This document shows, piece after piece, positions 1 to 12,886 of a stretch of DNA of 64,000 nucleotides. The position numbers were made by a program, and so were the translations under genes. Location: contig PBJZ01000018.1 of the NCBI GenBank assembly GCA_002721275.1, positions 3,729 through 67,728 of the forward strand. The letters are read 5' to 3'. Within the stretch, counting starts at the first letter, position 1; every line of letters starts with the position of its first letter. Source of the stretch: Flavobacteriaceae bacterium (GTDB lineage Bacteria; Bacteroidota; Bacteroidia; Flavobacteriales; Flavobacteriaceae). A model generated the notes under the pieces. That model saw nothing but the letters and a program-made list of their open reading frames with translations. It made no database searches and was not told where the DNA came from.

Positions 1-3000
1 GGTTGTAGAATTTGGTGTTATATCAGTACTTGTAACTGTTCCCGTTGTGGTAGCTAATTCTAGATTGTATGTTCCCCCTGGTGTTTCCGCTTTTAAATAT
101 ATAGCATTGTTAGTTAGATCAGGAATCGCAAATATTGACGAGTTAGAATCTAATCTTGGAACCAAGTCATTGATTATTTGAGTAATACTTGTTTGTCCAG
201 CCTGAACAGGATGATCATAATTTAATTCGTCAATTGTAACAGTTACTTTATCTCCAGCAGAAAAAGTTCCAGATATTGTAATTTTATCTTGTTGAGCAAA
301 ATCAGCGGATTCTAAAACAAAGTTTTTAGCTCCATTACTAATTTCGTAGGTGATATCAATAATATCGTTATCATTACAAACTTCCTGATTATCTGTTCCA
401 GCATCTGATGTAAGCGCAATCTTAGAATTAGGAAGAATACTAATAGCCACAGTTTGTTTTCCCGCCGGACTGCAACTTGTTCCTACAGTAGTAACATCAA
501 AAGTATAGGTCCTTGTACTACTCACTGAATCTGACGGTGATCCAGTTATGGTTACATAATTTTTATTTGTTATATCTCCTGTAACTGTGTCATCTAAAGC
601 AATTGTAGTTGTTGAGGTTAATGATTCAAAACTAAATGCCTTGCCTGGTTGGTCTGCAGTCAATATTATATTAGTACCTGAAGTTGAAGCAGTAATTGGA
701 CTAAGTCTGGTCCCTATTGAATTATTTATTTCATCTACTAATTCTTGTGCAGCTGTCTCACTTGTTATTGATGCATTTGCTATAGTATATTGATAAGAAA
801 TCCCATTAATTTTTATTGTAAATACCTGACCTGCTGGGAGGGTAGTCCCAGAAACATTTGTAGTTTGAACTTGTGCAGTAGTATAAGGTGTCAATGTTAC
901 ACCGGGAGGAAGCCCATTGAGACCTACCAAAGGAGCAACAGTAACAGCTGTAGCGGACCCTTCTACCTCAAGGCGAATTCCATCTATTTTTCCACCCTCA
1001 CATACCGCTTGAACTAATTCACCATTTGTTGTAGTTGATACTGTCTCACCAACAAACAATGTAGTTGTTATTGTTGCAGAATGATTTAATTGCTCTGCCG
1101 GAATTACAGTAATAGTGGCAGACTGAGTGGTTGAGGAAACAGAGCAGCTGGAATTTATATTTCCCATAGTTTCAACTACATATGTGTAGGTCAATGGAGC
1201 ATTAGCAGAAGGGCTTAGTCCTGATAAATCAGGAGAACCTGTAAGTGTTAATAACCCAGTTCCAGAAATATTTTCTCTTGACAAAGTATAACTAGATGTA
1301 CCATTTGAAATAAAAGGAGTCAAAGAGTATCCTTGAATGGGTCCTGCTGCCTTGGCCTCTAGAACAAGTTTCGAACCACTAGATGAAGTGGCTGACACAC
1401 TTGATGATAAATCGTTATTTATTGTTTGTACTAATCTATCAATAAAAGTAATTATAGTCTCTCCAATGACTGTTGATACAGTATAAGTCTTATCATTAAT
1501 CTGTACTCCAAATGTTTCAGAAATAGTTGCAGTAGCAGGTCCAGACCATGTTATCTCGTCAGATTGTTTTGAATCACTATAAGTTTGTGAAAGTCCAGGT
1601 GGAATCTGATCAAAATTACCATTAGTTTGAGTTGTTAAAGAAACTGCCCCACCATATACTTTAAATGAAATTGGAACAATATTAGCATTTTCACATACCT
1701 CTTGAGATGCGGTTGCTGGAGCTGTACCAAGCTCAATAACTGGTGGGCCAAGCAATGTAATTGTTCCTGTTACTGTTGCATGTGGGGTGCATGATGTACC
1801 AGTAGTCTCAATTGTATAATAATATGTTGTAGCAGTCGTAACTGCATCAGGGTCACCTGTGAGCGTAACATAATTATCATTTTCAATATCTCCCGCTACT
1901 GAGCTATCCAGTGAAGATGAATTTGTAGCAGAATTGGCATTAGTAGAAGTAGCCGTATATGAAAATGATACTCCAGGAATATCCGCTGTTAAAACAACTG
2001 TTGTACCTGATACGCCAGCAGTAACTGGACTTGTTCTATTTCCAGTTGCGGTATTAATCTGAGTTAATATACCGAGTGCAACCTCTGAATATGTTTTTGT
2101 AACAGTTGTGGAATAAGTATAATCAACACCATTAATATTTATAACAAACGAATCCCCTTGTGACATGGTTCCGGTTACCTGAACAGTCCTTACCTGAGCC
2201 TTTGAATTTGGGGTTAATGCTATCCCCGGAGGTAGTCCTGAAAAAAGATTGAGTGAAGCAGAGCTAGCGCTAACAGAGGATCCTGAAAGATCTAACCTAA
2301 TTCCAACTAATTCCTCACCCTCACATACTACCTGGTTAAGTAACCCATTAACAGTTGCACTGGTAGTTGCAAATGTAGATGAAACAATTGTTGTAGGGTG
2401 ATTAATCCTTTCTGGTGGTTTTAATTTAAATGAGCCAGTAAAAGTATCCTCATTACAAGAGTAAATATTACCGGTTGAGTTAATTGTAAAATTATAAATA
2501 TTGGTATTGTTCAATGTTACTGAAGGTGTTCCAGAAATAGTTATTATTCCAGTTCCTCTAACTGGGTTAACAGTCATATCAATGGTAGGGTCAGCTGCAA
2601 TAATTACACTTTGTGGTACTCCTATATTTGATCCTGTTACCCTTATTGTACCGCTTGCTGTAATTGTAGCTGAAATACTAGAAGTTAAATCAAGAGTAAC
2701 TGGAACTCCAACTGAACCTGTTCCCGATACCGATGAAGTTATGTTATCTATTGAAGTGCCTATTACTTTTCCAAATAACTTAAATGATCCATTACCAATA
2801 TCCATGGCTTCAACTACATCTTGAATACCAGCTGTATTATTTATTGAACTTGCAATTCCAGTTGCTATTTCAATATTAGTTGTAATAGTTGTAACAGCAG
2901 TAAATATGGCTGAACGAGCAGTATCAGTGGTTAAAGTAACAGTATAGGAATTATTAATTGCTGTTCCTTGACCAGTGATGGTAATTAACTTTACATACTG

Positions 3001-3960
3001 ATTTATTGCACTTGCTACGCCTGTTCTGAGAGTTGATGATGAGGTATTTGGTGATGCAGTATATGTAACCGTATGAGAACCACCTCCGTTAACACTTAAT
3101 GATATACTATAAGTTTCTGTTGAAGAACCAGAATTAGCACCCGAAAAACTTATTTCATCTATTTGATTTAAAGGTGCGAAATTTTGTTGCAATCCAGGAG
3201 GGATTCCTGTTAATCCAGCTAATGGTGGCACGCTGGCACCTGTAGCTCCATTAAAGACCTCAACAGTTAAATCCACAATATCCTCGCCAACACACAATTC
3301 CTGAGCTTCAGTACCTGACGCAGAAGTCTGAGTTAATAAAGACTCTGGCTCAACTATTATATATCCCGATGCTGTTCCTGGTGTACATGAACTTCCGGTT
3401 GTTTGTATAGTAAAATCATATCTTGTTGGTGTAAGAACCGGGGCAGTTGGAGTGCCATCTATTATAAATGAACCCACTCCTTGAATAGGATCTTTGGGAG
3501 TAGACATTGATAAATTTGTGGAATTTTCAAGCAAATTTATACTAAAATAAGATGCCGGATTAATTGCTGTTAATCTAATTGTACCGCTCGTTGTATCTGC
3601 ATCAGCATTAATAATTCTTAATCCATCAGCATTAATTAGGTTTGCAATAGCTTTAGCTACAGCATCTTTATCAGGTGTTCCTGTGACCACATAGTCGTAT
3701 CTCTTTCCAGAGATAAATATTTTAAAGCTTTCTGAGGCTGCTGCATTTCCTCCACCAGACACAGAAACATCATAGACCATATTTGTTGGACTGAATGTTC
3801 CTGTAACTCCGACTGGTAAACCAGTTGTTCCAGAAAGAGCTGGTACGTAGGCTCCAGTAGCTCCCCCAGTAACATTAAATGTAATTGAAACAGGTAAGGA
3901 AGTGTTTACACAAACCTCTTGAACCTCACTTCCTGCAGCTGATGTTTTAGTTAGAGTTTG
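1..3960 (-). repeat. Array of six consecutive [Ig-like + inserted module] units (~195-300 aa each). The sixth is cut by the window edge.
   Basis: The motif Q-[EAV]-[VL]-C opens each unit at residues 2938, 3144, 3467, 3677, 3908 and 4116. Each is followed by G-[LI]-P-x-G, then the inserted module, then x-I-x-G-[TS/D]-P ... Y-x-[FY]-x-[IV]-x-T-x-G-x-x-C. Confidence 0.75.
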
Positions 3961-6900
3961 ATTTGGAGGAACATTGAAAGGAATAGTAACTAATGGGGCT
4001 CCACATCCAGTTGATGTTGCAGTAACATTAACAGTACCTGAAAAATCCGAATTCCATGTTAAAACTCCAGTATCACAATTAATTACCCCAGCGGAGTTAT
4101 TATCAATGGACCATGTAATACTGTTTCCAGATCCTGGATCTGAATAAAATTGAGTTGAAGCAACAGAGCCTGGGCAACTTGGGAGGAAACTACCACCTTG
4201 TACTATTATATCAGTTGGTGTGACTGCCCTACTTGCAATGACTATGCTTTTCGTTGAAACTGGCGATGTTGTGACACCATCACAACCAATTGCAGTAGCA
4301 TTTAAATTAAAGCTTCCATGAAAACCAGAAGTCCAATCCAAGATACCCTGCTGGGTAAAAGTAGTATTTGCCTCATTATCAATAACAGTAAGGGGGCTAC
4401 CAGTTCCTGGACTAACCGAAGATAATGACCAAGTAATGTATTGATAGTCCTCAGATTGAGCAAAAAACTGAGTAGAGGGTGTAGAGTTTGTAATCTCACA
4501 ATTTGGCTGAGCTCCAGTTCTTCTGTTCCAATTTGTTCCACAAACATATGTTGAGTTTGCTACTATCAGTCCTTCATTCAAATTATAAGCAGGAGAAAAG
4601 GCGTTGTTTGGAACAGGAATCCTCTCAAATTCAACAACAAAATTTGTTCCATAATCACTGTATCCAAGATAATCTGCTGTTACATCAAGTCTAGCAGAGG
4701 TTGATCCAGCAGATATACTCGAAGCTGTAACTCCAGCGGAGCCTCTAAAAGTATGTGTAGCACCATTAATTTGATTTAAGAAACTTGTTTTAATATCATT
4801 TGCTGTCGCACTTGCAGTGGATGTGTATTCGTAACATCGTCCATTTATAGTCATTCTGTATACCTCACCAGCAGGTACATTTACTGTACCACCAGAATTA
4901 TTATCAATATATATCCTTGTTTTTTGAAATTGTTCTAAAACACCAGGTTCTGATGGAGTTGATGGAGTTTGCAACGTTGAACTCGCAGAATTTATAGTTA
5001 CTGAATTTAATGTCGCAGCAGTTGAAGAAATAGATGCAGAAATTTTAAAATTTGTAACTGATGAAATACTAGAAGTTACTTTTACGTGAGTATTTCCAAC
5101 ATTAGTTGCTGTTAAACTAAATGGAAAGCTTCCAAAGTTGGAATTAATTAATGTTGTTATTGATTCAACTGTTGCAGCTACGGTAAGAGGAGCTCCTGCA
5201 ACAGTGTATCCCGCAGTAGTTCCATTAACAGTTACAGAAACAACATCTGTAGCAACAACTGGGGCTGAAACAAAAATATGCTCCTGAATTGGATCTGCAG
5301 CAAATACTTCTATATTTTGCGTTTTGGTTCCGGATGGACCATTACACCCAAGTGTTTGAACAGATATGGTAGCAATTCCAATAAAATCAGGATCCCAAGT
5401 CACTTCTCCTGTACTAATATTAATTGTACCAGCACCCGCTGTTAAAGACCATTGTAAACCAGCTGCATTGGATTGTCCACATGCATCAAAATCAGTAATT
5501 TCTGGAGTTCCACAACTTGCTCCATTATAAATTCTAACTCCACCATCATTAATCATTGTTTCATTAGTCAATTGCATATTTCCTGAGACTCCGTCATATG
5601 ATGGGTAATTAGCTATAATATAGTTTGGAGCACCTACTGGTTGATTAACATCAATAACACCACTGATCGATGGGTCAGAACATCCTGCACACCAAATTGG
5701 TGTGATACTCATATTAGAGCCTACTGAAGTTGTTGCTGATTGGGTACTTGTGGTTGAAAATGAAACTTGAGGAGTGTCACCAGAAGAGTATGTTTCTATA
5801 GATAGAACAATACCTCTTTTTTCAGCTTCAATCGTAATTGTTGAACCTGCAACTGTTGAGGATACTAAATCAGTTGCATCCATGAACCCACTTAATTCAG
5901 TAGCAATAGCTGCTGCTCCAACTCCATTTCCTGGAGAACTAACATATGGTACTCCATTTACTACTATAGTATAAACTTCCCCTGTAGTATTTGTTGTTCC
6001 CGTTAAAGCAATTGTCGAAATATCCTGAGCCAAACTATTTTTAAATCCAATAGTATAGGGTGTGTCTTCTTTATGAGCAACTACTGTTATCGTGCCGGCT
6101 GCTGTATCGCCTGTTGCAGCAACACCTGTTGTAGCATTATTTACTCTTGCGTCATTATTTATTGCATTTGTTAGCAAGGTTACCAAACTTGCTACAGTAG
6201 CAGTAGTAGCAGTGACTGTTATGGAAAATGAATTAATTACTACTGTATATAATTCGCCTACATTGGGAGCACCAACTATATTAATTCGATCTTTTTGGTA
6301 TGATTCTGTTTTAACAGTATAAGCTAGTTGACTAGTCGGATTACCAGAAAATCTATAAAGTGTTCCTCCAATTCTACTTACCGTTATACCATTTACTGAA
6401 GCTGTAGCGTCAGCATAAGGTGGCTCTGTTGTGGCCTCATCATTAGATTTACCATTGTCAGATGGATCAATAGAAAATGGAGTAATGACAAGATCAGCAG
6501 TCCCACCAGCTATTTCGAAATCAATAGCTTGTATTGGATCTCCTCTACAAACAGTCTGATCCTTTAATCCACCACTTTGAGTAATTGTTTCAATTGGACT
6601 CACAATTACTGTTGCTGACTCAGAATCTTTAAAACAGGTTGAAGAAGTGGTTTTAATAATTGCAGGTGCTGAAATAGTTGCATTAGCGCCGCCTCCTAAG
6701 GTTCTGGTAATTGTAATTGCAGTTCCAGCTACTTTCCCTCTAATATCAATAGTACCATTTTGATAATCGTATGCTTCGACTACGTCCCTAATACCCGTTG
6801 TGGTATTGATTGCATTTGCAATACCTTCAGTAATTTTGGAATTTAATGTTACTGTTGTTAATGTTGTAAAAGTTGCCGAAGTAGTTCCTCCCGCAGCAAC

Positions 6901-9900
6901 ACTAATTTTATAGGTTTCTCCAATTGCAGCTCCGTTCCCTGAAACAGAAATCCTTTGAACGGGGTAAATATTATAGGTGTTAGTTGATCTTATTCTAAAA
7001 TATGATGTTTGAGTAAGAGGTGTTGCAGGATCAAGAGTTGTTGTATTTACATTGTTATATCCACCTGCTAGAATTGAAAAATTTTCATTATCTGTTGATC
7101 CATACCACTGATTAGTAATTGTTCCGAAATTTGGAGAATTTGATACACCCGTAGCAGATATATCAATTGGCGTCGAACCTGAGCAAATCGTTTGATTTGC
7201 AACAGTGTTTGCCTTATTAATATCATCGATTACTGAAATTAACACAGAACTTGTAGTCGCACTACATATGTTTGGAGTTGAATCAATTGCTGTCATGGAT
7301 GCGGTACCACCAGTGCCATTGGAATCTGCATACGTATAAGTGGTTCCTGAAACTTTTGGAGTTAATGTTATTACTCCATTTACATTTGCAGCGCTAACAG
7401 GTAAAGATGTATCCGCTGTAATTGATGCAACAAGGGCAGCAGCTTTTGTAGTAGTAGTTGTACCTGTTGTAACAGTCACTGCTGTTCCATTTATTATCAT
7501 TGAAAAAGCCTTTCCAGTTCCAACATCTCCAGTAATTGTTATTTGATCTATGTTATCGACAACAGAGGAAATAGCTTGTCTTCTATAATAAAGTGATGAG
7601 ATTAATGCACCAGGTGGTTGATAGGAAGCCGAAGTAGCATTTTGAATATTGGTCCAATTAATATTATTGGTTGATACCTGCCACTGATAAGTAACTGCAC
7701 CATTAACAGATGTAGCATCTTTGACACTTAATAATTGATTTGGAATAGTATTGTAACATATAAACTCAGGCATGGCAATCTGTCCAACGTCGAAAGCATT
7801 TACGGTTACTTTATGTACTTCAGAAGGAACCTCACAATTAATTACTCCTCCTGAAACTCTTTGTGTCATTCTTCTGTAGTATGAAGTTTGAGTTACAACA
7901 CCAACACTAAAGCTTACACCTGTAGCCCCAGGAATATCTTCCCAGTTACTATTATCAATTGAAATCTCCCACTGATATTCAATACCACTGGCAGGTGCGG
8001 TTGATCCTGTGACTGATAAAGCAGTTGGGACGGCTGATGGATTTGAGGGGTCATAACAAAAAACTTGGTTGTTACCACTATTTATTATTCCACCTTGTAA
8101 AGGGTCTACAGTAATAGTCCCACTAATTTGAGCTTCACTACAACCATTAAAATTAGATAAAGTTCTAACTGTATAGGTATATATTGTTGTTATTATATCC
8201 GTTGTACTTGGTGTGCCTGATATCCTGAAAATGCCACCCCCGACATAATTTCCAACCACTCCATTAGGAAGACCATCTACAACTAAAGCTGTAGGAGGGT
8301 TTACTGTTGCACTGACTGATCCTATTATATTATAAGTTATGGTTGTGATAGCAGAATTATTACAAACAGTTTGCGTACTTGTTCCTGCTGCAGATGTTAA
8401 AGTAATTGTTGAAGCAGCACTGACAGCAATCGTTCCACTTAAAGAGTCATTGACTGAACACTCATTAGCTCCTGTGGTAGAAATTGTATAGCTAAATACT
8501 TGGGAAGCTACACCAGAATTTATTGTCCCACTAATAATAATTTGATTTGTATTGGAAGTTGTTATAGAGTTAGTCATTCTAGAATTTCCTGCTGTACCTC
8601 CAAGGTTAACTCCAAACGGTACACCTAGACTCTTTGAAGTAAGCCTAATAGCATGATCCCCAATTTTAGTAACAGTAACACTTGCAGATGCACTCCCATC
8701 AATTGCAGTAAACAAACCATCTCTAATCGTTTCTGATGTGTTTCCAGTTATCGCAGCAAAAGAATACATAGTTCCATTAACCCCTATTATATACGATCCA
8801 CTAACAGCACCGGTAACTGTAACTGTATTAGATTGAGCTAATTTATTTGAATTTGCACTAACACCTGGGGGAAGAGTAAGGGGTATAGTAGGGCTTATTT
8901 GAGTGGCGCTTCCTTTTAATTCATAAGTGATAGATTCAATAGCACTTCCAGCACAAACTATTTGAGTAGTATAAGAAGCTGCTGAGGAAAGCTCGATAAC
9001 TTCTGCTGGCTCGACGGTAATAATTCCTGTTCTAACAACTTCAGGACACCCGGAAGAACCAGAACTACTAACACTATAGTTAAATATTGTAGTATATGGA
9101 ATAGTCACACTTGGAGTTCCTGTAATTATAAATTTCTTTGTAGTGCTTGAATACTGCCCTGTAACCCCAGTTGGTAATCCATCAATGACCATAGTTGGGT
9201 CAGTAACTTGAGCTCCAGTCCCTCCTCCTCCAAGAGTGTAGGTTATAGAAGATATGGCAGAGTTATTACAAACTGTCTGAGAATCAGAATTTGCAACTCC
9301 CGTATTAGTTAATACCAAAGTAGAAGATTCTTTAAGTGTTATTGTTCCTGTTAAGGAACTTGTGACTGTGCAGGTAGGACTACCTCCTGCATAAGTTGTT
9401 ATGGAATAAGTATACGTTGCAGCAGTTACACTCGAATCAAGTGTACCTTGAATACGATACCTATTTGTATTTGAAGTAACTGAAGTATTAGTCATATTAA
9501 CTGATCCAGCCCATGCATCGTAGTCATCACCAATATTAACCTTGAAAGGAGTTCCTGCAACTTTAGCAGTCAAATCAAAAGCAGTAGATCCGTTATTAGA
9601 AACATTGACAGGAACTGTTCCACTACCACTAATAGCTGCAACTAATCCATTTCTAATTTGATTTGCTGTACTTGTATTACTATCTCCAAAACTGAAAACC
9701 TCTCCATTAATAGCAAGTCTGTGTGTTCCAGTTGCAGCCCCAGAAATATTAATTGTGTTTACCTGCGCAACCTTAAGGTGATTAGCAGTAATTCCAGCAG
9801 GAAGACCCATAGTTGATGCTAGGGTTGGACTAATTGTAATTGCACTGCCAGTTAAATCATAAACTATATCGGTTATTGCTACTGATGGATCACACACATC

Positions 9901-12732
9901 TTGTGCAGCAATAGAAGGCGAAGAAACTAAAGTGATAACTTGCTCAGGAGCTACACTGATTGTTCCATTGACTGTCGCTTCTGTGCAACCACCGGAATTT
10001 CCGCTGGTTGTAATTGTATAAGTAAACTCTGTATCAGTAAGTAATGTGAGTGAAGGAGTTCCTGATATAGTCAAAATACCACCTGAAAAAGCACTTGTAA
10101 CTCCTGGAGGAAGACCATCAACAACTAAAGCAGTGGGCGAAGAAACCGTAGCACCTGTGGCACCTAAAATATCGTAAGTTATAGAGGTAATTGCGGAGTT
10201 AACACACACAGATTGACTGTTAGTAGATCCACCTGATGTTAATGAAACAGTTGATGTAGGTTTTACAGTAATAGTTCCTACAGTAGATGAATTTGTTGAA
10301 CAAATACTTGCTCCTGTAGTTGAGATTGTATATGAATAAACACCTGGAGTTTCACTCAAACTGACAGTTCCAAATACCTCAATTTTATTTAAATTAGGAG
10401 TGATATTTGAAGTGCTCATATTTGCGGACTGAGTTCCACCCAGGGTTACTGCTGAAAAAGATAATCCTGGTGTATCTGCAGTTAGATTAATTCCTGTCGT
10501 TCCGCTTGTGGATGCGCTAACTAAAGATATTCCATCATTTTGAATTAATGTAAGTAATCCGTTTCTTATATCTTGTGCAGAGCTTGAACCTGTTGCATTA
10601 AAAACATAAGCTCTACTATTAATAAATAATTTATATGAGCCTTGAGCTGCAGAAGTAATTTTTATTGTATTTACTTGAGCTTGGGTTGTTTGTAGAACTT
10701 GAAGTCCATCTGGAAGTCCAATTTCTGATACAACTGTAGGGCTTATTGTGGTTGCAGAAACACTTCCTCCACTAAGATTATAAGTAATTGTTGCAATTGA
10801 TGATCCTACACAAATATTCTGTGCTGTAGGTCCAGAATCATATGTAATAGATTCTGGAGATTCAACAATTATGAAAACCGGATCTGTATACTTTTCACAC
10901 TCATGACCCTTGTAAGTTGAAATTGCTGCTCTTCGATAATAACTGCTCTCAAATAGATTTGGTGGCTGATAATTTTGGGTGTAAACCCCGACATTACTGT
11001 AATTATCTCCATCAGTAGATTTTTCCCATCTGTATGTTAATGAAGCCGTTAATCCTAAACTAGGACTCGTACCAGTAATATTTGATGGCGCATTACCATA
11101 ACATATCGTTTGATTGGATGATAACGTTCCAGCATCTGATATATTATTTAAATCAACTGAAATATAAATCTCAGAAGAACATCCAGTCCCACTGGAACCC
11201 GTAAAGCCTGTAACTTTTATCACATTACCATTTTGAAAAGAACTAAATGTTGTAGTACTTGCGGTTGTCGTTGATCCTCCAAGAACTTGAAAGGTGTAGG
11301 ATGTTGCACCTGATGCCTGAATAACTTGTGTCGAACCCTCACATATTACAATACCCTGACTACCCTTTAATCTTTCGACTCCAATTAGAGCTCCACTGTT
11401 TGCATCAGAGGATGATGTGATTACAGAAAAAGCTGACCCGGCAGAGGGATTTGTTATAGTTAAAAATGCAGAAGATCCATCTCCTCCTCCATCAACGATA
11501 GTATAACCACTACCTGCTAAATTTGTAACCAAGGCATCGATTGCAAGATTTGCAGCAGTAATAGTATTTGAAGACGTATAAGTAGTTCCAGTTGTTGTAA
11601 TTGAAAATGTATCGCCCGCATCAATACTTCCTGAAATAGTAATTTTATATGATTCATTGTCATTAAATAAAGTAAATCCTGTTCCAGATACAGTTATGGA
11701 TGAACCAGAATCTTCAGGTGTCAAGTTAACATCGACTGATATTGGATAAGTCTGTCTTTCACATCCATTAGAATCGGTCAACTTTGCATAAATTACATAA
11801 TCTGTTTTACTATTTCTAGTAAAGTTTTGATTTGAAGTTGATCCAGTTGCACTACCATTATTAACATAAAAATTATATGAAACCCCTCCACTTGTATTAA
11901 AGTCTATCGATTCATCACTACAAATCTCCACAAATTGTGAACCAGCAATAACATTTGGAGAATCAAAATTAAGTGTTCCAGATGAGGATGCAGAGTAATT
12001 AAAAGATGTACCGGAGTTAACCCCGGTAATTCTAATTATCCTTTTGGTAGCAGCACCAGATGGTGCTCCAGCATTATTAGCATCATAAGCTGCGTCTGCA
12101 TTTATTAAAGAGGCCAATGCAGTAGCAATATTTTCAGCAGATCTTGAGGTTGATGCTGTGACTGTATGAGTATAAGTAGTACCACTTAAAGTAATAGAAT
12201 AACTCTCCTCTGAAGAGCCAGTTGTTGATGTACCTATGAGTATTTCAACTATTTGTTGTCTTGGAGTTTGACTTAAACCTGGAGTATTTAGTGGAGATGC
12301 TGTTCCTCTTGTTACAGTAATTTCCGCAACTTTAGAATCTATTATAGTTCCAGGAGAATCATCAAAATAAACCTCTGCTGTAACAGTATTCGGTCCAGGA
12401 TTGATCATTGATATAGTTTGCGTAACAGTAAATGAAGTTTGAGACTGAACATCAGAAGCAGGCATATCTTTATAATATGTTGCTGAGTTAGTTCCTATTA
12501 CTGTGATTTTTAGTGTCGCAGAAGATGTTGTTAGTGTAACTGCTGAGGTATTTGTAAAAACAGTACCAAAATCATAATTTATTGTAGGGCAAGCATCAGG
12601 AATCGTTGGAGAGGGAACTGCAACTCCTTGGAAAGAATCTATTCTAATGTCTTGTGCAAAAAGACATATCGGAGATAATAATATTATACCAATACATAAT
12701 ATGTGTTTAATAAAACTTTTCAAAATTCTCAC
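1..12732 (-). CDS. Giant secreted cell-surface repeat protein, N-terminal 4,244 codons only (the 3' end lies beyond position 1). It is a mosaic of Ig-like (He_PIG-like / PKD-like) modules and a recurrent uncharacterised ~85-95 aa module.
   Basis: I translated the minus strand manually, line by line, in the frame aligned to position 1. None of the 4,244 plus-strand triplets is tta, cta or tca, so the minus strand has no stop codon. An upstream in-frame TAG at 12744-12742 bounds the 5' end. The start is GTG 12732-12730 (alternative TTG 12741-12739), and there is no in-frame ATG before codon 90. The N-terminus reads [34 protein letters not shown], a signal peptide. The last codons in the window read ...[20 protein letters not shown]. 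The ORF is missing from the supplied track, probably because it has no stop codon inside the window. Confidence 0.9.
   Translation of the reverse strand, partial: [4244 protein letters not shown]
3973..5697 (-). other. Central Cys-rich region with three modules carrying an [IL]-[TQ]-W-S-[LI] ... G-x-[LV]-[TD]-W-x-x-x-F-x-G ... G-C-x-G signature (5308-5697, 4228-4560, 3973-4200). They are interleaved with two copies of the uncharacterised module.
   Basis: Translations: [137 protein letters not shown]. Confidence 0.6.
7555..8100 (-). repeat. Two tandem PKD-like/Ig-like modules with the Bacteroidota-typical I-C-x-G/Y ... Y-[QR]-W ... W ... Y-Y-R-R signature. Further copies lie at 10861-11127 and 6973-7221.
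   Basis: Translations: ...[10 protein letters not shown]...[42 protein letters not shown]...; ...[11 protein letters not shown]...[42 protein letters not shown]...; also ...[10 protein letters not shown]...[18 protein letters not shown]...SSYYRRAAI (residues 536-624) and ...[10 protein letters not shown]...[14 protein letters not shown]...TSYFRIRS (residues 1838-1920). Confidence 0.7.
8101..10860 (-). repeat. Three tandem protein-level super-repeats (~305 aa, ~920 nt each). Each is [Ig-like module carrying an inserted ~95 aa module] + [plain Ig-like module].
   Basis: The Q-x-[IV]-C-x-x-S-[AI]-I-x-x-I-x-Y motif recurs at residues 640/944/1257 (inserted type) and 841/1152/1454 (plain type). 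The Cys pairs are 641-811, 947-1121 and 1260-1425 in the inserted type, and 843-916, 1155-1229 and 1457-1531 in the plain type. Copies are diverged, roughly 35-45% identical by eye, and are not near-identical at DNA level. Confidence 0.8.
12655..12732 (-). other. Predicted Sec signal peptide of the giant protein (residues 1-26, cleavage after LFA)
   Basis: The N-terminus is basic (R2, K5, K9), followed by the hydrophobic core [15 protein letters not shown] and then A/QD. The call is by eye; no predictor was run. Confidence 0.6.
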
Positions 12733-12886
12733 CTGATACAACTACTCTTTTACAACCAACAATTAATAACAATTATTATTTAAAAGAGTAATTTATTCAT
12801 ATATAGTAAAGTTATGTAAATTATGTTAACAATAATCTAATTTGTTAAATCAATTATTTTATAAAATTTTACACTAATTTAATTAG

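Follow-up and report, generated by a model that had tools for sequence, protein, structure and literature searches.

Ig-like domains interrupted by a recurrent inserted module in a giant, probably SprB-like protein of a Flavobacteriaceae bacterium

The DNA analyzed here (the window) is a stretch of 64,000 nucleotides from a marine Flavobacteriaceae bacterium (assembly GCA_002721275.1, contig PBJZ01000018.1, positions 3,729 to 67,728), and the subject is a giant protein encoded on its minus strand. Sequence profiles support a nested architecture for this protein, in which immunoglobulin (Ig)-like host domains are interrupted by a whole inserted module. A preliminary description of the same DNA had located the arrangement at 8101-10860, which corresponds to residues ~628-1547, as three tandem super-repeats in which plain and long Ig-like modules alternate. 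The layout was borne out for residues 632-1548, and it proved not to be confined to that region: iterated profile searching found 18 copies of the inserted module in the visible protein, and at least six more split modules resembling He_PIG domains lie at window 1-3957, which gives at least nine such split hosts in all.

Plain and split modules in the super-repeats

A single open frame of 4247 codons, with zero stops, runs on the minus strand from 12741 to the left window edge. Residues were numbered from the TTG at 12741; these numbers are three higher than those in the preliminary description. The three super-repeats, each composed of a split module followed by a plain one, span residues 632-933, 934-1246 and 1247-1548 (window 8098-10848; Table 1). 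The two cysteines of the split modules are 170, 174 and 165 residues apart, and those of the plain modules 73, 74 and 74, exactly the values given earlier for all six. When the six modules were aligned with MAFFT, plain and split versions aligned outside the insertion, and the invariant columns (Q, C, I, Y, G, LPxG, Y and G-I) were common to all. The extra segment of the long modules had been described as an insertion of ~95 amino acids (aa); an insertion it is, of 91-100 aa, made up of a core of 70-80 aa and linker strands.

The relation between the two kinds of module was examined with profile hidden Markov models (HMMs). A profile built from the three plain modules of the protein itself matches every split module as two pieces, at approximately profile positions 1-64 and 52-104; for instance, residues 2929-2989 match positions 1-61 (E = 1.7e-10) and residues 3089-3133 match positions 58-104 (E = 2.5e-8). 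To avoid circularity, separate N-half and C-half profiles were made from 817 distinct uninterrupted modules in the 120 best homologues, cut at the proposed break. These half-domain HMMs match on either side of the inserts. In split module 1 they do so at residues 633-680 (E = 2e-8) and 795-828 (E = 4e-7), the insert itself being matched by its own HMM with E = 2e-24; in a downstream module they match residues 2929-2984 (E = 2e-14) and 3092-3132 (E = 1e-9). The C-half of split module 2 was matched solely by the in-protein plain profile (E = 0.0013), and was below threshold with the half-domain HMMs. With N, I and C standing for matches to the N-half, the insert and the C-half, the protein reads I I [N-I-C][N-C][N-I-(C)][N-C][N-I-C][N-C] I×6 [N-I-C][N-I-C][N-I-C][N-I-C][N-I-C][N-I..., where (C) is the C-half of split module 2 and the second [N-I-C] after I×6 is the candidate three-level nest described below. 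Hosts from which the insert was excised in silico align along the plain-domain profile, with 33-46% identity to plain modules.

The two flanks of an insert are thus complementary in what they match, one half each of a single profile, rather than being two independent domains, and both halves of the Ig-like domain are retained, as had been proposed. Default MAFFT placed the gap in the six modules ~15 residues earlier than the break originally suggested. The alignment was not edited by hand, and the break point was settled by the half-domain HMMs; on this basis, it falls between the LPxG-V strand, which it directly follows, and the I-x-I-x-G-T-P strand.

Residues 629-831 (203 aa) were modeled with AlphaFold2 (AF2), using an alignment of 15 natural split modules. 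The model is compact and displays the insert as a separate beta-beta-beta-alpha-beta-beta-beta unit, in keeping with the nested arrangement. The mean predicted local distance difference test score (pLDDT) is 82.6 and the predicted template-modeling score (pTM) is 0.74; the insert scores 90-94 in pLDDT. The host part is all beta-strand, and its ten-residue blocks have pLDDT values of 75-93, except for blocks 31-40 (61) and 181-190 (59). A pTM of 0.74 over 203 residues would be hard to attain unless all three segments were mutually fixed: a rigid unit of 85-95 aa alone would be expected to yield ~0.45, and 0.74 would be an unlikely value for three independent units joined flexibly. Homology and this pTM together suggest that the two host halves rebuild one sandwich. 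When Foldseek was run with the whole split model, the matches mainly reflected the insert, and none of the Ig-like targets aligned across the gap.

Exactly two cysteines, in the same two columns, are present in 795 of the 817 plain modules, and both are invariant across the 15 split modules. Together with the predicted extracytoplasmic location of the protein, this points to a putative disulfide that would join the paired cysteines across the insert. As to the identity of the host, the He_PIG-like signature noted in the preliminary description stands insofar as the motif L-P-x-G ... G-T-P ... Y-x-Y-x-I-x-T is present over a repeat of ~90 aa (in the consensus of the 817 homologous modules and in the alignments) and the modeled structure is all-beta; the gathering score of the Pfam models He_PIG (PF05345) and Ig_7 (PF19081) is not reached.

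Further copies, other insertion sites and the family of the inserted module

The split He_PIG-like modules at window 1-3957 are listed in Table 1; in the complete members of the consecutive series at residues 3466-4093, the Cys pairs are 3473/3651, 3683/3866 and 3914/4090. The module is also found in two adjacent hosts of a second Ig-like type, for which a profile was built from uninterrupted copies (pattern C...YQW...YYRR...C). On the first of these hosts, the YQW-domain HMM matches residues 1652-1726 and halts at position 76 of 98 (E = 1e-18), to be followed by the module and then by ...NICSATTSSVLISV. On the second, it matches residues 1848-1924 and halts at position 78 of 98 (E = 5e-13), again followed by the module. 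In this type, the module occupies another loop, the one that precedes the final, Cys-bearing strand.

At residues 3137-3439, the spacing of the Cys pair grows to 279. Taken alone, the two pieces of the outer module at this locus match profile positions 4-42 and 45-69; once residues 3249-3350 are deleted in silico, the match is again full-length (40.5 bits, profile 4-69). The outer module would accordingly be read as having a second, complete module lodged in it after its helix, i.e. a domain in a domain in a domain. This candidate three-level nest is based on the in-silico splice; AF2 did not close the outer module with confidence.

The tandem pair of modules at residues 2153-2310 comes after what resembles the greater part of a He_PIG-like host (N-half match at 2052-2093 with the plain profile); the host may thus have received two modules in front of its last strand. 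The pair and the single copies are matched by the insert HMM with E values from 1e-13 to 6e-18. The surroundings of the four single copies (173-247, 367-438, 2491-2562 and 2619-2695) match neither host profile.

Table 1. Features of the giant protein and their positions in the window
Feature	Window position	Strand	Residues	Details
Giant open reading frame (ORF)	1..12741	-	at least 4247 aa	truncated by left window end
N-terminal module copies	12001-12225 and 11428-11643	-	173-247, 367-438	insert HMM
Split module 1	10252..10848	-	632-830	host N-half 10702-10845, insert 10432-10680, host C-half 10258-10359; Cys644, Cys814
Plain He_PIG/Ig_7-like module 1	9943..10251	-	831-933	Cys846, Cys919; N-half E = 2e-21, C-half E = 7e-13, contiguous
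Split module 2	9322..9942	-	934-1140	N-half 9781-9936, insert 9523-9771, C-half 9334-9486; Cys950, Cys1124
Plain module 2	9004..9321	-	1141-1246	Cys1158, Cys1232; half-domain HMMs
Split module 3	8410..9003	-	1247-1444	N-half 8848-8997, insert 8590-8838, C-half 8422-8541; Cys1263, Cys1428
Plain module 3	8098..8409	-	1445-1548	Cys1460, Cys1534; half-domain HMMs, sub-threshold Ig_7
Second host type (YQW/YYRR Ig-like) with module	7216..7788	-	1652-1842	module 7336-7542; Cys1662, Cys1826
Second YQW-type host with insert	6592..7200	-	1848-2050	module 6718-6951; Cys1853, Cys2036
Tandem module pair	5812-6285	-	2153-2310	between Cys2065 and Cys2351/2354; insert HMM
Single module copies	5056-5271 and 4657-4887	-	2491-2562, 2619-2695	insert HMM
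Split He_PIG-like module	3346..3957	-	2929-3132	Cys2944, Cys3119; N-half E = 2e-14, insert E = 8e-21, C-half E = 1e-9
Candidate three-level nest	2425..3333	-	3137-3439	Cys3150/Cys3429; outer module 2998-3132 + 2587-2691, inner module 2752-2985
Four consecutive split modules	1..2346	-	3466-3662, 3670-3881, 3903-4093, 4108 onward	last truncated by window end; N-I-C HMM order

The consensus of the inserted module is approximately ITxTG...TYxIxINGxxY...(helix) L..xIN...VxA...G..IxLTA..xGxxF, and pairwise identity among its copies is 15-49%. No Pfam model corresponds to it; Flagellin_IN (PF07196) was considered and rejected, as it matched one of 29 copies with E = 0.29. The module had been called new, which does not hold. 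A word-indexed protein search with the 80-position module profile returned three tiny fragments; an exhaustive search of 1.84 billion cluster representatives with the module profile returned 2,696 proteins at E <= 1e-3 (433 at E <= 1e-10), among them FlgE, flagellin and sheath proteins. Many FlgE hook proteins were recovered, with two to three copies each. The 48 top matches of 800 aa or less include 19 with Flg_bbr_C (the FlgE/rod C-terminal domain), 17 with FlgE D1 and 13 with FlgE_D2. Eight copies of the module were found in a 1392-aa flagellin, and ten in a 1275-aa "phage tail sheath gpL-like" protein. In one protein, QVL45097.1 (P0124; 3353 aa, from a Methylophilaceae metagenome-assembled genome, MAG), at least 27 tandem copies occupy almost the entire length without Ig-like hosts; the module can thus also be strung linearly.

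Against the sequences of the PDB (hmmsearch), the module profile matched 8kee, the cyanophage A-1(L) tail sheath, at E = 2e-4 and Phi92 gp130 at E = 7e-4. The top Foldseek match was likewise 8kee (E = 1e-5, probability 1.0, root-mean-square deviation of 2.1 Å over 96 columns, 21% identity), followed by the sheaths of Milano, Mu and 7-7-1 and by flagellin outer domains (8erm, 9ygu, 2zbi). Matches among predicted viral structures were sheath, baseplate and tail proteins. Because of the superposition on 8kee, the profile match and the recovery of FlgE and flagellin, the module is assigned to the tail-sheath/hook/flagellin outer-domain fold family, an old, common and uncurated one. In 8kee, the matched stretch is internal (residues 97-166 of a 506-aa chain). 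The outer domains of axial proteins (hook, flagellin, sheath), among which are relatives of the module, are typically carried as insertions within inner domains.

Probable surface-fibre context and alternative explanations

The ORF begins with a hydrophobic leader, ...ILLSPICLFAQD (approximately residues 1-30, window 12652-12741), recognized by eye from the sequence, and an N-terminal signal peptide of the Sec type is predicted. The protein contains 15% Thr, 12.5% Ser and just 51 Cys. The G+C content of the giant gene (window 1-12000) is 0.36-0.38, higher than in most of the surrounding DNA (mostly 0.26-0.34), probably owing to its coding for many Thr, Ser, Gly and Ala residues. Searched as a whole against Pfam and NCBIfam, the 4247-aa window protein gave no family at threshold. 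Its sole Pfam signal was that of plain module 3 with Ig_7 (16.4 bits, E = 0.012, cut-off 27.3); the Pfam scan found neither the SprB repeat nor RTX in these 4247 aa. A role of the Thr/Ser-rich knobs as carriers of the Bacteroidota O-glycosylation sequon, D-[ST]-[AILVMT], was considered and rejected: the sequon is depleted in the protein (28% Ser+Thr), with 7 observed versus 22.9 ± 4.3 expected from residue shuffles of the whole ORF.

An orthologue is encoded in the MAG Flavobacteriaceae bacterium SAT168 (PATA01000018.1, 3-15764). It is 87% identical over 2995 aa and has its parts in the same order; as it comes from an independent MAG, an assembly artefact is ruled out. The orthologue has more split modules, including one N-I-I-C unit, and runs 2258 aa beyond the window edge, which implies a full length of ~6500 aa. 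Downstream of the window end, it carries a SprB repeat (PF13573) at 36.2 bits (cut-off 28); in its C-terminal 2257 aa, Pfam gives just this repeat and a CHU_C match that is weak. CHU_C or Por_Secre_tail is common among the homologues. These three features (the SprB repeat, the weak CHU_C end and the tails of the homologues) make export by a type 9 secretion system (T9SS) likely, and the protein is probably a SprB-like T9SS surface fibre of ~6500 aa.

The explanation that we favour, and regard as probable, is that of a SprB-like fibre with an Ig-like stalk from which knobs bud for lateral display. The stalk would be a chain of ~90-aa beta-sandwiches of the He_PIG/Ig_7 type, with two cysteines each. 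In the hairpin between the "LPxG-V" and "I-x-I-x-G-T-P" strands, a module of 70-80 aa and two linker strands would be inserted, such that the chain exits the sandwich, forms a knob at its side and re-enters to complete the sandwich. The hosts would then continue the fibre axis, and the knobs would project sideways. A two-domain unit would have been triplicated in tandem after one insertion, giving the alternation at 8098-10848, and the module would also have entered the second Ig-like type at another loop and, once, another copy of itself. By analogy with the split domains of RTX adhesins, the function may be the lateral display of many diversified binding or contact surfaces along the fibre, for adhesion.

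Several observations weigh against this account. No single module reaches a threshold in Pfam or NCBIfam, and the He_PIG/Ig_7 label is carried over from the motifs and from homologues, many of which have precomputed PF05345 or PF19081 annotation. In the AF2 model of split module 1, the loop with the second cysteine is the weakest part of the host (pLDDT ~59). In that of the nest (pTM 0.52), the host and the inner module are confident, and the returning part of the outer module has a pLDDT of 31-45; this returning part had no alignment cover, and several MAFFT designs could not cover both modules. The C-terminus of the orthologue, ...SPNVFTPNGDIFN... (NVFTPNGD...), matches CHU_C with 17.4 bits and E = 0.005 (cut-off 27), and NCBIfam yielded nothing for this end. 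Finally, the outer domains of hook and sheath are generally thought to be structural, not ligand-binding.

The last point leads to the main rival of adhesive lateral display: the domains are nested, and the knobs are mechanical, packing against neighbouring domains or molecules to stiffen, bundle or shield the fibre. We judge this possible, although clearly the less likely of the two. It agrees with the module's closest relatives being outer domains of helical assemblies (hook, flagellin, sheath), with the existence of long arrays of the module alone, as in QVL45097.1, and with a composition rich in Thr, Ser, Gly and Ala that includes no obvious pocket-forming residues. It agrees less well with the divergence of the copies, which at 15-49% identity fits diversified surfaces, or with the fact that the budded domains of RTX adhesins are the ligand-binding ones (PMC12077191).

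A more far-reaching explanation, which we hold to be doubtful, is that the module is a promiscuous budding unit that spreads into loops of unrelated folds. Its hosts would be the two Ig-like types, its own helix-strand loop and, via its relatives, the cores of hook, flagellin and sheath; the many knobs of one chain would interlock among themselves or with adjacent fibres, in the manner supposed for hook and sheath outer domains, to yield a self-bracing or laterally associating T9SS filament. If true, such a filament of interlocking knobs would be a design undescribed for gliding adhesins.

The history of the insertion could also be the reverse of the one given in the favoured explanation, with the long form ancestral and the plain modules produced by precise deletion. 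Homologues both with and without the insert exist. Split modules do outnumber plain ones within the window protein, as the deletion reading would have it; in the 120 best homologues of the region, however, there are 817 plain modules, and only four of these proteins carry the insert. One of the four, P0064, is distant, and in it two modules are split and many are plain. Of the 150 best representatives that bear the module, five show the N-I-C order, and a sixth, the fragment P0177, is 52% identical to the window protein; the named N-I-C representatives are from Flavobacteriaceae MAGs, save one labelled Methylophagaceae. FlgE, flagellin, sheath proteins and tandem arrays contain the module independently, and it is found in different loops depending on the host, as well as within a copy of itself. 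Since plain modules are in excess elsewhere and the module is present in unrelated proteins, insertion would be the more economical direction, and we consider deletion very unlikely.

The alternation within the super-repeats is best read as a tandem triplication of one split-plus-plain unit after one insertion, rather than as three insertions: the split hosts are 43-51% identical to one another and the plain modules 49-57%, and identities between split and plain are lower (33-41%). The number and order of split units vary between relatives. P0043 (1574 aa), which shares the N-terminal layout of window residues 1-1640, runs split, plain, split, split, YQW, compared with split, plain, split, plain, split, plain, YQW in the window protein.

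That the arrangement is linear after all, the flanks being two small independent domains with a superficial likeness to the plain module, could draw on the slightly different gap placed by default MAFFT, and can be set aside as highly improbable, for the flanks match non-overlapping halves of one profile with significant E values in most split modules, each spans just ~40-55 aa with a single one of the conserved cysteine pair, the excised hosts align along the plain-domain profile, and the pTM of the 203-aa segment speaks against loosely linked units.

The architecture and its module have several consequences. The split-domain design rule of fibrillar adhesins is taken beyond the type 1 secreted RTX proteins and into Bacteroidota, in a probable T9SS fibre. 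If budded domains flag functional sites in it as in RTX adhesins, a Cys-Cys spacing of ~170 versus ~74 would serve as a simple sequence-level flag for candidate sites in huge unannotated proteins. A domain family without a Pfam model (~2,700 cluster representatives) links the outer domains of hook, flagellin and phage sheath to adhesins of non-flagellated bacteria, and is useful for annotation and for tracing domain exchange. The recursive nest would be a natural example of small beta-sandwich and alpha/beta modules that tolerate whole-domain insertion, which may interest protein engineers.

Comparison with known systems

The closest parallel to the design is found in RTX adhesins (AhLap, FrhA and MpIBP), in which Ig-like split domains with a complete domain budding sideways are an established principle, used as a criterion for finding ligand-binding domains (PMC12077191). 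Recursive budding occurs in them as well, from a beta-roll to vWFA to a further insert (PMC12077191). In both systems, an Ig-like beta-sandwich of a fibrillar megadalton adhesin is interrupted by a whole side-budding domain with adjacent N- and C-termini. The RTX adhesins are type 1 secreted proteins of Proteobacteria, with Ca2+-dependent extenders and, close to the tip, between one and three split units. The window protein, in contrast, is probably SprB-like (T9SS-type) and from Flavobacteriaceae, a different phylum, and at least nine of its He_PIG-like hosts, distributed along the rod, are split; the insert is one and the same small module throughout, in place of a lectin, vWFA or RTX domain, and the hosts have Cys pairs and no RTX repeats. 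It works as the RTX split domains do, yet outside that family: no type 1 signal, RTX repeats or N-terminal retention module came out of the Pfam scan of its 4247 aa. The literature searched yielded no account of nested modules in SprB or in any other Bacteroidota adhesin, an absence that is not proof. This agrees with the preliminary description, which was aware of no such regularly repeated nested insertion in Bacteroidota surface proteins; the principle itself is established in RTX adhesins (PMC12077191).

The outer domain of contractile-tail sheaths (8kee; Milano, Mu, 7-7-1) has the same fold as the insert and detectable sequence similarity to it. In these tails, the domain is carried by the sheath core, part of a helical assembly, instead of by an Ig-like domain, with one copy per subunit. 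The outer domains of FlgE and flagellin are related to the insert by profile recovery, by structural matches and by an "AQV-T" lead-in common to both. They differ in that the module occurs here in a gliding-type adhesin, and Pfam Flagellin_IN is not matched. To our knowledge, Flavobacteriia have no flagella.

As a whole, the protein resembles SprB of Flavobacterium johnsoniae and the other giant T9SS adhesins with a type-B C-terminal domain: it shares the estimated size of ~6500 aa, the predicted Sec signal peptide and the repetitive Ig-like content, and its orthologue has the SprB repeat and the NVFTPNGD.../CHU_C-like end. It departs from them in its inserts, which most He_PIG/CHU_C homologues lack. 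The split-domain principle was already established and the module itself is not new; their use in a probably SprB-like protein of Bacteroidota would be a variant of that design.

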